50,870 nucleotides of DNA from an uncultured Candidatus Saccharibacteria bacterium (GTDB lineage Bacteria; Patescibacteriota; Minisyncoccia; Phycocordibacterales; JAKAEA01), in the NCBI GenBank assembly GCA_964577595.1, contig CAZNZK010000002.1, positions 1 through 50,870 on the forward strand. Direction: 5' to 3'. Shown in pieces: positions 11,120 through 34,762 of this stretch (the stretch's first letter is position 1; each line of letters starts with the position of its first letter). A program made the translations under genes and the position numbers. A model generated the notes under the pieces. That model had not been told where the DNA came from. It searched no databases and was given only the letters and a program-made list of their open reading frames with translations.

Positions 11120-13375
11120 ATGAAAAAACAGAGAAAAACGCGTTCTGAAAAAGATGATGATTTCTTCGGAGACTCTGCCACCGGCCTCCAACAAGAGACG
11201 CTAAAAATTGTGTACGCTATTGTCTGTTTTATAGTGAGCATCTTTTTCATTCTCTCTGCCATAGGCAAGGCTGGGCCAGTCGGCGACACTTCATATACTG
11301 GCCTTAAATTTCTCTCTGGTATTGGCTACTTCCTTCTGCCTATATTTTCTTTTTTCACGGGCATTATTTTTCTCAGCTCCCTGCACCGTCAAAAAATTGG
11401 CTGGATACGTATTGTTACGTTTTTTATAAGCATCGTGGCTTTCCTGGGAATCATCGGAGTAATTTTTAAGAGCGCGCCAGTAGACCAAGCAGGCGGCTTC
11501 ATTGGTTCCATTATCGCCGGTCCACTCGTCCACTTTTTTGACGTGTGGGCTTCTTTGGTTTTTCTGGTAGGTATCGCTTTTATTTCTCTCGTAGTAACCG
11601 TTGACAACCGCATCAGCTGGAAGCGACTTTTGTTCTGGAAAAAATACACCGAGGAAGAGAAGGATGAGGAGGGTTTTATTCTTGACAATCCTGCCCTAGA
11701 ATCTAAAGGACTTGCGGCAGCAACCCTAAAAAAGGGGGCGGTTTTAAGCGAGGAGAATGATGCTCAAAAACCCCTTCCTGAAAAAGCGCCTAGAATAATC
11801 AACCCGGAAAAAAGCTCCGGGGAAGAGTTTGCTGTTAGTAGTCGAAAATTCCTGGGTAAGGTATTCACTCCTCCACCTCTTTCCCTACTTGAAGAAGACC
11901 GTGGTAAGCCGGGTGTCGGGGACATTAAAGCTAATGCCAACATCATTAAGCGTAGCCTACAAAACTTCGGTATTAGTGTAGAAATGGATGAAATCTCCAT
12001 TGGTCCTTCAGTAACCCGCTACGCTCTTAAACCGGCCGAGGGCGTTAAGCTTTCACGCATTGTCGGCCTCCAGAACGACCTGGCTCTGGCTTTAGCGGCC
12101 CACCCAATCCGCATTGAAGCACCGATTCCCGGCAAATCACTGGTAGGTATCGAAATCCCAAATAGTTCCAAAACTACGGTGGGCCTAGGAACACTCCTTT
12201 CTGCCGAAGAATTTCAAACGTCGGAAAAGCCGCTCTTGGTTGCTCTCGGCCGGGGCATTTCCGGAAAAAGTCACTTTGCTAACCTAGCAAAAATGCCCCA
12301 CCTTCTCATCGCTGGGGCCACGGGTTCAGGAAAATCAGTGACTATTCATGCAATTCTCACCTCACTCCTCTATCGCAACTCACCTGAAAACCTGAAATTC
12401 ATCATGATTGACCCGAAACGAGTAGAGTTAACGATGTACAACAATATCCCCCACCTTCTAACGCCAGTTATCACTGACCCGAAAAAAGCCATTCTCGCTC
12501 TGAAGTGGGCAGGTAAAGAAATGGATCGCCGCTACGATATCCTTGAAACGGAAAAAGTGCGCGACATAGAGTCGTACCACAAAAACATCGTCAGCCCGGC
12601 CCTCAAAAAAATCAAAGATCCCGCCGACGAAGAGGCTGAGCTCTTACCAGAAACAATGCCCTATATTGTTGTTGTCATTGACGAATTAGCCGACCTCATG
12701 CAGGCCTACCCGCGTGAATTAGAATCGGCTGTGGTGCGCCTCGCCCAAATGAGCCGCGCCGTGGGTATTCATCTCATCCTTTCCACCCAGCGCCCATCAG
12801 TCAATGTTATTACCGGCCTTATTAAAGCCAATATCCCCTCACGCATCGCCCTGCAAGTAACCTCACAAATTGATTCGCGCACCATTTTGGACACTGGTGG
12901 CGCGGAAAAACTCCTCGGTGCTGGTGACATGCTCTTTATGTCGGGCGAAATGGCCAAGCCAAGCCGCATTCAGTCGGCCTATATTTCAGAGCGAGAACTT
13001 AAAGACGTGGTGAGTTATTTTGTTGACACCTACAGCGACGTGCCACCCTCCGACATCAACCTGACTGAAACAGCAACAGATAAAAACGCCATTTTTGACG
13101 CAACGTTCGGCAGTAGTAACGATGATGACAGCGACCCACTCTACGATGAGGCCCGGGAGGCCGTTGTTGCCGCTGGTAAGGCCTCCACTTCCTACCTTCA
13201 ACGCAAACTCCGCGTGGGCTACGCTCGTGCCGCCCGCCTGATTGACCTCCTTGAAGAAAACGGCGTTATCGGCCCTGGCGATGGTGCTAGACCACGAGAA
13301 GTTCTTGGTGGCAACGAAACTCCGGTCGCCCCTGCCGCCGAAGCAGCCGAGGAAGTAGTATCCGACCCGGCATAA
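11120..13375 (+). CDS. ftsK: DNA translocase FtsK/SpoIIIE
   Basis: N-terminal TM helices; PHLLIAGATGSGKS Walker A; IDELADLM; LSTQRPSVNVITGLIKAN; gamma domain LQRKLRVGYARAARLID. Extended -10 TGGTATAAT at 11095-11103 supports the 11120 start. Confidence 0.97.
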   Translation: MKKQRKTRSEKDDDFFGDSATGLQQETLKIVYAIVCFIVSIFFILSAIGKAGPVGDTSYTGLKFLSGIGYFLLPIFSFFTGIIFLSSLHRQKIGWIRIVTFFISIVAFLGIIGVIFKSAPVDQAGGFIGSIIAGPLVHFFDVWASLVFLVGIAFISLVVTVDNRISWKRLLFWKKYTEEEKDEEGFILDNPALESKGLAAATLKKGAVLSEENDAQKPLPEKAPRIINPEKSSGEEFAVSSRKFLGKVFTPPPLSLLEEDRGKPGVGDIKANANIIKRSLQNFGISVEMDEISIGPSVTRYALKPAEGVKLSRIVGLQNDLALALAAHPIRIEAPIPGKSLVGIEIPNSSKTTVGLGTLLSAEEFQTSEKPLLVALGRGISGKSHFANLAKMPHLLIAGATGSGKSVTIHAILTSLLYRNSPENLKFIMIDPKRVELTMYNNIPHLLTPVITDPKKAILALKWAGKEMDRRYDILETEKVRDIESYHKNIVSPALKKIKDPADEEAELLPETMPYIVVVIDELADLMQAYPRELESAVVRLAQMSRAVGIHLILSTQRPSVNVITGLIKANIPSRIALQVTSQIDSRTILDTGGAEKLLGAGDMLFMSGEMAKPSRIQSAYISERELKDVVSYFVDTYSDVPPSDINLTETATDKNAIFDATFGSSNDDDSDPLYDEAREAVVAAGKASTSYLQRKLRVGYARAARLIDLLEENGVIGPGDGARPREVLGGNETPVAPAAEAAEEVVSDPA

Positions 13376-32800: not shown

Positions 32801-33229
32801 TTATTTTCGGCCGGTGCTACCGAACTGACCCTTGCCGCGAGCGGATTCAGTCAGCGTATCAGTTTCCTCAATTTTAGCAATTTCCACGGGGAAAATGAGC
32901 AGCTGGGCGACCTTGTCGCCTTTCTCTACGGTATATGGCTTGTCGCCCAAGTTAACCAAATGCACGTTATATTCACCACGAAAACCAGCATCAAAAACTC
33001 CGCCCATAGTGTGCAAATTCGCTTTACTAATACTCCCCTTATCTTTAATGATGCCTGCGTAGCCGTGCGGGAATTCAATAGCTATACCATTATAAAAAAG
33101 GTAATGTTCGCCCGGCGCCAGGGTTTTTTCTTCCATGGAATAAAGGTCTAGGCCGACATCGCCCGGGTGGGCATAGCTCGGCACTTTAGCCTCCGGCTTC
33201 AGCTTTTGAATTTTAATAGTGATTGACAT
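32801..33229 (-). CDS. dut: dUTP diphosphatase
   Basis: DVGLDL, GVFDAGFRGE, GDKVAQL, RG.GQFGSTG. Confidence 0.95.
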   Translation of the reverse strand: MSITIKIQKLKPEAKVPSYAHPGDVGLDLYSMEEKTLAPGEHYLFYNGIAIEFPHGYAGIIKDKGSISKANLHTMGGVFDAGFRGEYNVHLVNLGDKPYTVEKGDKVAQLLIFPVEIAKIEETDTLTESARGKGQFGSTGRK

Positions 33230-33307
33230 GAAAAGAATTCCGTCTTGTGTCGCACAATTTTACCATTTCTTCAGAAATATTTCATCGGGTGGTGAAATAA
33301 TTACGGG

Positions 33308-33826
33308 ATGGAGAAAAATGAATCAATTATTCCTCTTGAACGAATTGCCCACTCTATTTTTATTATCCGTGGGCAGAAAGTGTTACTAGATAACGATCTG
33401 GCCTTATTATACGGAGTTTCCACTAAGCAGTTCAATCGTGCAGTACAAAGAAACTTAGGGAGATTCCCAGCCGATTTTATGTTTCAACTCACACCAGAAG
33501 AAACTAAACGTTTGAGGTGCCAAATTGGCACCTCAAACAAACGGGGCGGACGACGTTATCTTGCCTATGCCTTTACAGAACAAGGCGTCGCCATGCTTTC
33601 AAGTGTTTTACGAAGCAAACGAGCAATTCTGGTGAATATTGAAATCATGCGAACATTTACTCGATTACGGCAAATTCTAGCTACTAATAAAGACTTAGCC
33701 GAAAAATTGGCGGGTTTAGAAGAAAAATACGACAAACAATTAGACATAATTTTTGAAGCACTCAGAAGGTTAATGGATCCAGGAAGGTCTTTACACAAAG
33801 GCCCGATGGGTTTTCAGCCATCTTGA
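33308..33826 (+). CDS. ORF6N (KilA-N-like) domain DNA-binding protein
   Basis: I..IRGQKV.LD.DLA.LYGV.TK..N.AV.RN..RFP.DFMFQLT.EE; PYAFTEQGVAMLSSVL.S-type motif (YLAYAFTEQGVAMLSSVLRS); C-terminal coiled coil. Confidence 0.92.
   Translation: MEKNESIIPLERIAHSIFIIRGQKVLLDNDLALLYGVSTKQFNRAVQRNLGRFPADFMFQLTPEETKRLRCQIGTSNKRGGRRYLAYAFTEQGVAMLSSVLRSKRAILVNIEIMRTFTRLRQILATNKDLAEKLAGLEEKYDKQLDIIFEALRRLMDPGRSLHKGPMGFQPS
33510..33538. repeat. Perfect palindrome inside the ORF6N gene (encodes LRCQIGTS)
   Basis: GTTTGAGGTGCCAA-A-TTGGCACCTCAAAC, 14-bp arms. Confidence 0.9.
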
Positions 33827-33942
33827 AGTCACAAATTACGACTTCAAGATGACATCTTTGCGCCTTAAAATAGAGGTTCGAATCTTTGAGGTGCCAAACT
33901 GACACCTCAAACTTGATATCACAATTTGTGATCTCAAGTTTG
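33820..33942. repeat. Tandem array of four variant copies of the ORF6N palindrome
   Basis: Units at 33820-33850, 33843-33868 (degenerate), 33885-33911, 33908-33942; most follow TTGA-N7-A-N-T-N7-TCAA. Confidence 0.85.
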
Positions 33943-34138
33943 CAATTAGTACTGATCTTGCTGTAGTATCAATCCCAACATGCTTTGCACTAAGAACATT
34001 CAAACGTGGTCTGGCTTTGTACCCGCCATCCCCCACCTTCTATAAACAGGGCGGTTTTACACTAATTTAAAACAATCAAAACTGCCCTTGTCGGGTGGTT
34101 TTTTGTTCTTTTGGCTGTTCTTTTAGAAAGGAAAAATT

Positions 34139-34762
34139 ATGGAATACCGCGCAGTTGGAAATCGGTGTGCGGCAAACCTTGGTTCAATGCGCCTACCAGT
34201 GACGCATAAAGAAGCGCTTGCCATTCTCGTGAGTAAAGGATTCGGAGTTTTGGAGGTTGACTTGGTGGCCCTCGCTCGTCAATGTATTATGTCTTCAAAA
34301 TATCGACGTAGTGCAAAACCTTCCGAAGCGCCTGCGATAGTAGATTGCTCAAGCTTCATTAAGTGGCTGTATGCCCAACGTGGCATATGGCTTCCGCGCC
34401 GATCAATTCAACAACGCGATTGGCAACGAGATATCTCCCCTATTCCATTTCGTGAAATTATACGAAACGACGTTGTCTTTAGTTCCGGATGGATTGATTA
34501 CTACCACAACGACCCGTCGGATGGTGTGGGGCACGTCGGCCTCGCCACTGGAGAAGGAACAATTATTCATGCCGCCAATAAAAAAGTGGGTGTTGTAGAA
34601 ACCTCAACAGAAAAGTTCGTTGATGAAAGTAGGTTTCGCGGAGTTCGTCGTTACATTCCCAAAGGCGAAGATGTTCTCACTTTTGAAACCCCACCTGAAC
34701 GGGAAATTGAGACTGCGGATGATATACGATGGATCATCCTGCAATCTATCCCCAAGCATTAG
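34139..34762 (+). CDS. NlpC/P60 family cysteine hydrolase
   Basis: DCSSF..W.Y....I.LPR.S, GHVG..TG.GTIIHAA (Cys-His-His). Confidence 0.85.
   Translation: MEYRAVGNRCAANLGSMRLPVTHKEALAILVSKGFGVLEVDLVALARQCIMSSKYRRSAKPSEAPAIVDCSSFIKWLYAQRGIWLPRRSIQQRDWQRDISPIPFREIIRNDVVFSSGWIDYYHNDPSDGVGHVGLATGEGTIIHAANKKVGVVETSTEKFVDESRFRGVRRYIPKGEDVLTFETPPEREIETADDIRWIILQSIPKH

Follow-up and report, generated by a model that had tools for sequence, protein, structure and literature searches.

A conserved palindrome inside ORF6N genes and in arrays beside them: a candidate cis site for the encoded protein

In a contig of 50,870 nucleotides (nt) from an uncultured Candidatus Saccharibacteria bacterium (CAZNZK010000002.1, assembly GCA_964577595.1; the window, meaning this whole stretch), we studied an ORF6N-family gene that carries a perfect palindrome within its coding sequence and is followed by an array of related palindromic units. 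Comparison with loci taken from genomes of more than 15 phyla, viral contigs, metagenomes and plasmids showed that the conserved object is a DNA symmetry and not a peptide, the protein "motif" being the shadow of a nucleic-acid element, and that the units are tied to ORF6N genes and multiply locally. The best-supported reading, to which we give a probability of about 0.45, is that the palindromes would be cognate cis sites of a dimeric ORF6N protein, one copy being kept in the gene. The original prediction, made from the letters of the window, had listed an array of sites bound by the protein, with one of them inside the gene itself, as one of three possibilities, next to silent donor cassettes that rewrite the motif and a palindromic element that duplicates itself.

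The open reading frame (ORF) at 33308-33826 on the plus strand encodes a protein that matched the ORF6N family over residues 16-100 (PF10543, E = 2.8e-33; 114.5 bits versus a cut-off of 27.8) and, in PHROGs, families described as "anti-repressor". Its AlphaFold2 model, with a mean predicted local distance difference test (pLDDT) value of 75, shows an alpha/beta domain at the N-terminus and, after it, two long helices towards the C-terminus. The core of the in-gene palindrome (33512-33536) encodes LRCQIGTS, residues 69-76, which in the model close a helix (63-73) and open a low-confidence loop (74-86). The predicted fold of the palindrome is -22.6 kcal/mol as RNA and -15.1 as DNA, with a z score of about -8. 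The PF10543 match and the arms of 14+1+14 nt thus confirmed the first description of this gene and of its perfect palindrome at 33510-33538. The features of the locus are as follows.

33308-33826, plus strand: ORF6N-family gene, 172 amino acids (Pfam PF10543, PADLOC PDC-S05, PHROGs, AlphaFold2 model)
33510-33538, no strand: in-gene palindrome, perfect, 14+1+14, inside ORF 33308-33826, about 200 nt into the gene
33819-33851, no strand: downstream unit 1, perfect 12-nt arms CATCTTGAAGTC / GACTTCAAGATG with a 9-nt spacer, consensus register 33823-33847
33844-33868, no strand: possible decayed unit, weak, with 12/18 consensus positions and 6/12 pairs in its best register
33885-33912, no strand: downstream unit 2, 93% identity with the in-gene copy (repeat/palindrome search, folding)
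33908-33942, no strand: downstream unit 3, arms of 17+1+17 with 94% complementarity, consensus register 33913-33937
34078-34102, plus strand: terminator-like hairpin followed by a T run, from a consensus scan only, which is not evidence of function

A degenerate-consensus scan of all 50,870 nt found exactly four sites, the in-gene palindrome and three downstream units, where 0.02 were expected from shuffled sequence; the exact in-gene sequence with up to three mismatches matched only itself and 33886-33910 (0 expected). All units folded far better than shuffles (z between -5.5 and -8.3). Downstream unit 1, which overlaps the ORF6N stop codon (33824-33826), had a fold of -17.3 kcal/mol (z = -7.95); the two mismatches of unit 2 read as A.C on the plus strand and as G.U on the minus strand; and the register of unit 3 begins 27 nt after that of unit 2. 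Three of the four downstream units first reported (33819-33851, 33885-33912 and 33908-33942) are therefore related palindromes; the fourth, then placed at 33843-33868, falls below the threshold used for calling units, which gives 0.6 false hits per 1.28 Mb of loci, and appears at most a decayed relic. If the terminator-like hairpin is used, the three downstream units lie within the 3' untranslated part of the ORF6N transcript. A six-frame, full-sensitivity profile search of 33801-34145 found only palindrome peptides and no second, decayed ORF6N gene after the array, and the minus-strand ORF 33836-34036, which had no family match, is a by-product of the palindromes. Identity of the units with a known RNA family or a tRNA-like element was rejected, as no covariance model of Rfam 15 matched 33200-34200 even at E <= 1, and rRNA and tRNA were the only Rfam matches at gathering score in the whole window. 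An ENA contig from the same organism (k141_1139088, 642 nt) ends exactly at the ORF6N stop codon, where downstream unit 1 starts, so the palindrome array seems to break short-read assembly.

The palindrome proved to be a feature of the whole family. Relatives of the window ORF6N at about 65% identity number in the thousands and occur in many phyla (one search alone scored 8,000, all with E < 1e-5); no relatives were found in E. coli. Nearly every gene has, at the same place about 200 nt from its start, a match to the family consensus TTGAG[G/A]T-NN-CAA-N-TTG-NN-A[C/T]CTCAA. In a scan that made no use of the consensus, 191 of 204 distinct ORF6N genes, which came from more than 15 phyla, had their strongest palindrome 10-40 residues before FTEQG, with 10-16 paired bases versus 6-8 in codon-shuffled genes; the in-gene palindrome of the window occupies the homologous position. 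In 1.28 Mb of loci, 252 units were called where 0.6 were expected. Distant members of the family, at 33-50% identity, had a palindrome of different sequence at the same place. Two Segatella copri plasmids have a replication initiator and ORF6N as their only annotated genes (NZ_CP152354.1, 2,955 bp; NZ_CP152486.1, 4,140 bp), and in each the sole long palindrome lies inside the ORF6N gene. This palindrome appears undescribed: the searchable literature contained no paper that links ORF6N or KilA-N to a palindrome and none with the core sequences, the single sequence match being an unrelated CRISPR table.

Several lines of evidence showed that the constraint acts on DNA and not on the peptide. Among 107 distinct in-gene units, 10.3 of 11 stem pairs were Watson-Crick, versus 4.5 when synonymous codons were resampled with the codon usage of each locus (200 simulations), and 92 of the 107 exceeded all 200 simulations. 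The cost is visible in the codons, since leucine was TTG in 83/92 units (background 18%), arginine AGR in 75/78 (27%) and serine TCA in 85/91 (15%), a bias that persisted in loci of 59-69% GC. Changes in one arm were matched in the other: AGG went with ACC (Thr) and AGA with ATC (Ile), codon 3 (Ser, Cys, Phe or Tyr) varied together with codon 6 (Val, Ala or Gly), and a change of TTG to TTA or CTA was joined by one of Ser to Leu. Consistently, the covariation score was 0.354 for in-gene units versus 0.135 in shuffles and 0.326 for extragenic units versus 0.156, with 0 of 500 shuffles as high in either case, and the signal vanished when the pairing partners were slid. The alternation of Ile and Phe reflects an A/T flip at the palindrome centre. 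Moreover, two subfamilies read the core in two frames: 165 genes encode L[RK]SQ[IF]VTS, and nine genes use another frame and encode E[LV][VI]xN[CF]Dx[LF] (e.g., AACTGGTCACAAATTGTGACCAGTT, giving ELVTNCDQL); it is therefore the symmetry of the DNA that is conserved, rather than the peptide. Since the coded peptide sits at a helix end and in a low-confidence loop, and since the position tolerates up to three extra in-frame units, it is unlikely to be the functional part.

Extra copies concentrate around the gene. Of the 252 units, called over the first 209 loci, 183 were in-gene, 36 upstream, 7 downstream and 26 in stretches where no ORF6N gene was found; upstream units usually lay 15-160 nt before the start codon (31/36 within 160 nt of it), and three of the seven downstream units belong to this window. 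Outside the gene, the region upstream of the start codon is thus the commonest place for extra copies, and downstream copies are rare. Metagenomes were also scanned for two adjacent units, which gave 80 loci with the following layouts.

52/80 loci: in-frame tandem copies inside genes, with 61/63 spacings multiples of 3
20/80 loci: upstream arrays of up to 7 units, with only 10/34 spacings multiples of 3
5/80 loci: downstream arrays like that of the window (L233, L271, L286, L252/L288)
7/80 loci: no ORF6N gene in the examined stretch (including L281)

The 3' array of the window is therefore a rare but not a unique layout. Tandems within genes comprised 2-4 units and flanking arrays reached 7-9, with 27 nt as the commonest step inside and outside genes alike. 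The original prediction had stressed that the plus-strand units of the window share one frame; the arithmetic is correct, but no general rule follows, because the 10/34 extragenic spacings that are multiples of 3 at other loci correspond to chance. Both genes in which the in-gene palindrome was completely lost (L010 and L073) are accompanied by good units on their upstream side. Units more than 400 nt from an ORF6N gene were rare in the 1.28 Mb of loci, and the 50.9-kb window held none elsewhere.

Stand-alone, near-consensus units were observed on Bacteroidota-type phage contigs and on Sulfurospirillum and Legionella plasmids, often 5-18 nt past the stop codon of an unrelated gene and without a T run. 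In a lineage of low-GC, phage-like viral contigs (L086-L131, e.g., L089 at 13137-13161), a unit of the form TTGAGGTCTCAA[A/T]TTGAGACCTCAA lies between a 631-residue gene, whose stop is 5 nt away, and a small gene starting MSEEQ, which follows about 45-55 nt further on; the examined stretch has no ORF6N gene. On a Sulfurospirillum plasmid (L339, 2001-2028), the unit lies 12-18 nt past the stop of a DNA polymerase IV gene, with a Sir2-family gene adjoining, and on a Legionella adelaidensis plasmid (L340, 2001-2028) 12-18 nt past that of an AbiEii toxin gene; neither unit has an annotated ORF6N gene nearby. Finally, a 13-kb stretch without an ORF6N gene (L281) contains a non-coding region of about 1.1 kb (650-1520) in which at least nine different self-complementary units are followed by at least six iteron-like direct repeats of the 'TTGATACCA' type, the array adjoining a small antitoxin-/toxin-like gene pair; this region could be the origin or transfer region of a Bacteroidota mobile element.

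We infer ORF6N as the candidate partner of the palindromes from their co-occurrence, from conserved non-coding copies and from variants shared within loci. Non-coding units keep TTGAGGTC[A/G]CAA across phyla (Campylobacterota and Legionella plasmids, Bacteroidota-type phage contigs), which calls for a conserved, sequence-specific partner, and no neighbour of the units recurs except ORF6N, whose identity from phylum to phylum is about 65%. In addition, rare variants were common to the in-gene and flanking units of one locus (TTAAGG in L333 from Legionella pneumophila, TCGAGATGCC in L335 from Butyrivibrio, AAAGAT in L189). On the sense strand, mismatches in extragenic stems were A.C rather than G.T in 24 versus 10, 15 versus 10 and 6 versus 4 cases; the lack of a G.T excess argues against a hairpin of the sense RNA. 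The A.C excess itself, which is modest and is shared by unit 33885-33912 of the window, may come from an effect specific to one strand or from greater degeneracy of the half-site distal to the gene.

According to this site model, ORF6N would be a small, probably dimeric protein of DNA-binding type, whose two long helices, as modelled, look suited to dimerisation. One site would occupy the coding sequence of a permissive surface loop, some 200 nt from the gene start, and a site in that position would make gene and site inseparable when the solitary gene moves between genomes. Further sites would accumulate beside the gene, usually before the start and, in the window, between the stop codon and the terminator-like hairpin. 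Binding would control the expression of ORF6N itself, as a putative autoregulation, or would build a nucleoprotein complex on its own locus; the protein could also act in trans on the rare stand-alone copies on phages and plasmids.

A number of observations weigh against this model. For about 84% of genes with an in-gene unit, the 200 nt upstream contain no further one, so that classical promoter-operator control cannot be general, and the array of the window is 3' of the gene. Within arrays, units differ from one another at positions 5-6 and 8-9 and yet each is about 93% Watson-Crick self-complementary, and complementarity runs on into non-conserved flanks; a homodimer on degenerate duplex half-sites requires neither. 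Some stand-alone units are on replicons in which no ORF6N gene was detected. A PDB sequence search with the ORF6N protein returned nothing relevant, neither an ORF6N structure nor a DNA complex, and Foldseek found only weak likeness of the model to winged-helix, MerR, MarR and Dachshund folds, all with E > 0.1.

Self-complementarity amid the divergence of the arrays, together with the complementarity of the flanks, is not explained by binding sites alone and points to the formation of hairpins or cruciforms. The strict self-complementarity might thus need a further ingredient, either recognition of an extruded hairpin or cruciform by the protein or arm-to-arm templated correction during replication. 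A more specific proposal, which we consider speculative and rather unlikely as a whole, is that ORF6N genes are self-contained modules of a gene and an internal cis site, a kind of element so far undescribed: the protein would recognise a hairpin or cruciform in its own reading frame, structure and loop would have co-evolved for a very long time, even across the change of frame, arrays would arise by hairpin-mediated slippage, and a solitary, defence-associated gene that moves horizontally would thereby carry a control or nucleation site that is independent of its surroundings.

The units could instead act as hairpins or cruciforms in single-stranded DNA or RNA that need no ORF6N partner, with possible roles in stabilisation of mRNA 3' or 5' ends, in processing, in blocking antisense transcription, or as replication or transfer signals on mobile DNA. 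The strong covariation, the reach of complementarity into the flanks and the self-complementarity of mutually different array units all suit such a role, as does the fact that all gene-near units could be on the ORF6N transcript, in its 5' leader, coding sequence or 3' trailer. The units of the window precede a terminator-like hairpin, stand-alone units follow the stops of unrelated genes at 5-18 nt, and the units of L281, at least nine, adjoin iteron-like repeats; the predominance of A.C over G.T on the sense strand, and the better folding of the window array as minus-strand RNA (-52.9 kcal/mol versus -48.5 as plus), can be read in the same direction. A purely structural element should drift, yet non-coding units keep TTGAGGTCRCAA across phyla; moreover, G.U pairs are not enriched on the sense strand, Rfam gave no match to the region even at E <= 1, and the tight tie to ORF6N genes is left unexplained. 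Nor are the units canonical intrinsic terminators: no T runs follow them, and the terminator scan called no downstream unit and the in-gene palindrome on the minus strand only, so this identity was rejected. Overall, we regard hairpins acting on their own as unlikely.

Distinctly unlikely, in our judgement, is a selfish or merely expansion-prone repeat lodged in a permissive loop, spread by slippage, kept symmetrical by template switching and of no benefit to the gene, much as REP elements or Rickettsia palindromic elements behave. For the palindromic element that duplicates itself in the original prediction, the propensity to multiply has stood, in the in-frame tandems of 2-4 units and the flanking arrays of 7-9. 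The step of 27 nt common to genes and flanks, the low-confidence host loop that accepts insertions and the A/T flip of the centre between Ile and Phe accord with such a repeat. Conversely, one position has been held in 191/204 genes, including members at 33-50% identity and those that read the core in the shifted frame, and the upkeep costs rare codons and amino-acid replacements; persistence at that cost points to selection. In addition, the 50-kb window showed no dispersal, into unrelated genes or otherwise, and the two genes that lost their in-gene copy (L010, L073) keep flanking ones.

The protein of the window also matched three profiles of the PADLOC candidate-defence family PDC-S05 (E = 2.7e-56, 1.9e-54 and 1.4e-37), one representative of which is reported to lower the plating of phages T7, T5 and T4 (preprint 10.1101/2024.09.26.614923). 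The member tested carried a RhuM domain (10.1101/2024.09.26.614923) and may belong to another subfamily, and we take the phage protection as a lead for the window ORF6N, suggested by profile similarity, and not as a test of it. Together with repeat arrays that precede a gene whose product has about 170 residues, this lead raises the idea of a system like type III toxin-antitoxin pairs, in which transcribed units would hold an ORF6N effector that is released when the RNA is lost upon phage infection. We consider this highly improbable, as the units are divergent palindromes instead of near-identical direct repeats, most loci have no upstream array, the sense strand shows no RNA-type wobble signature and a family profile search with the ORF6N protein gave no match of ToxN/AbiQ type; the RhuM domain of the tested member counts against it as well.

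Silent cassettes that rewrite LRCQIGTS by gene conversion or inversion, the first possibility raised in the original prediction, can be practically dismissed: although the downstream units are related to the in-gene motif, can be read as variant peptides and include three plus-strand units in one frame, an independent assembly of the same organism was base-for-base identical over gene and array, the 90%-identity cluster of the window protein consisted of one sequence, seen on 7 contigs, the motif varies less than other parts of the protein, with its eight residues holding 2 of 193 variable columns versus 8.7 expected by length in nine other clusters (75 proteins), and one of these two being the trivial Ile/Phe flip, extragenic units lie mostly upstream of the start with unphased spacings (10/34), and, where homologues differ in the motif, the changes are compensatory and preserve the palindrome. 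Neither an adjacent recombinase, reverse transcriptase or invertase, nor hypervariability of the target, nor phased donors, the marks of targeted diversification, were found. The neighbours of the window gene are a dUTPase and an NlpC/P60 protein, in agreement with the earlier remark that no recombinase or reverse transcriptase is adjacent, and neither was a recurrent neighbour in homologous loci. The survey of ORF6N loci that had been suggested did reveal downstream arrays elsewhere (the 5/80 loci above). Flanking units in general agreed only weakly with the in-gene variant of their locus, in 18/32 cases versus 12.6 expected (P about 0.02), and a match in specificity of the two at positions 8-9 was rejected, because shared descent can explain it.

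We compared the locus with known systems, and examined membership for REP/RAYT, Rickettsia palindromic elements, origins within rep genes and type III toxin-antitoxin systems, from each of which it departed in defining features. The closest parallel is parS, a centromere site that lies inside or beside parB/spo0J and is bound by the encoded protein. As with parS in parB, a palindrome within the coding sequence is conserved at the DNA level, more copies are nearby, and site and gene travel together; unlike ParB, ORF6N is a protein of another family whose binding is only predicted, and unlike parS the ORF6N units vary while staying self-complementary and amplify into tandem arrays, including in-frame copies in the gene. 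Auxiliary operators and roadblock sites in coding regions, such as lac O2 in lacZ and gal OI in galE, are likewise palindromic protein sites (putatively so for ORF6N) in coding sequence alongside promoter-proximal copies. The ORF6N site, however, is in the gene of the presumed regulator itself, is found across phyla and shapes the amino-acid sequence, and most ORF6N loci have no promoter-proximal copy.

Other systems resemble the locus in single traits. In REPtrons, repetitive extragenic palindromic (REP) sequences flank the gene of a REP-associated tyrosine transposase (RAYT) thought to act on them; short palindromes flanking a gene, with occasional copies elsewhere, are common to both, whereas ORF6N was the sole family matched by the window gene product, with no HUH/Y1 transposase, no dispersal in the 50-kb window and one unit within the coding sequence. 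Rickettsia palindromic elements, in-frame gene insertions of about 100-150 nt, recall the extra in-gene units in that palindromic DNA is placed in frame at a structurally permissive site, but the ORF6N units are 25-31 nt long and occupy one fixed position, where they are ancient, in one gene family. Rolling-circle origins inside rep genes (pT181 repC, phiX174 gene A) and the hairpins of IS200 are hairpin-forming sites in or just before the gene of the acting product, which for ORF6N is presumed, and the genes are of similar size; ORF6N differs in having no known nuclease motif, no conserved element ends were found, and the 2,955-bp Segatella plasmid has a Rep gene separate from ORF6N. ToxIN, finally, has an array of short repeats upstream of the gene for a phage-defence protein of about 170 residues, as some ORF6N loci have upstream of a defence-linked gene of that size; the ORF6N repeats are divergent palindromes, often absent, one of them in the gene, and the two protein families are unrelated. 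In the form seen here, a cis site lodged within the gene for the protein presumed to bind it appears undescribed.

Phages, plasmids, defence islands and bacterial chromosomes very commonly encode ORF6N proteins; a palindrome that is fixed in position, read in two frames and prone to form arrays offers a concrete, testable handle on what they recognise. The palindrome also provides a clear example from nature of a "conserved protein motif" that is dictated by a nucleic-acid constraint, and this bears on how such motifs are interpreted. Practical consequences concern codon optimisation of ORF6N genes and annotation, since the arrays give rise to spurious ORFs and interrupt assemblies. Should binding of the protein to its own gene be borne out, a mobile gene would have a compact means of taking its regulation with it.

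Regarding genomic context, a solitary ORF6N gene sits between housekeeping genes in many phyla, and the neighbours of homologous genes (73 upstream and 70 downstream positions) were heterogeneous housekeeping genes with few HsdM/HsdS and Fic genes, so that a conserved partner gene was rejected. A transposon with conserved ends was rejected as well, by all-against-all blastn of 153 genes with 800-nt flanks, in which similarity stopped within the coding sequence except between near-identical contigs. At some loci (L028, L062 and L334), ORF6N lies within a type I restriction-modification operon, with the methylase gene on one side and the specificity gene on the other; in the last of these, from Treponema, the order is methyltransferase, winged-helix gene, ORF6N and specificity subunit.

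Three further observations concern other parts of the window. At 1-1579 on the minus strand, a partial 23S rRNA match covers only model positions 1-1032; because these 1,032 positions span 1,579 nt, the 5' third of the gene has about 550 extra bases, possibly an insertion or intron of the kind found in small-genome uncultured bacteria. Rfam called a tRNA at 50364-50445 on the plus strand (49.4 bits), but ARAGORN did not detect a tRNA in any part of the window. The region that precedes the arginyl-tRNA synthetase gene, seen at 1-565 of locus L001 and corresponding to the same region of the window, contains a neighbouring gene for a class I tRNA synthetase of 1,152 residues, which has a histidine-phosphatase (His_Phos_1) domain match between its synthetase domains.

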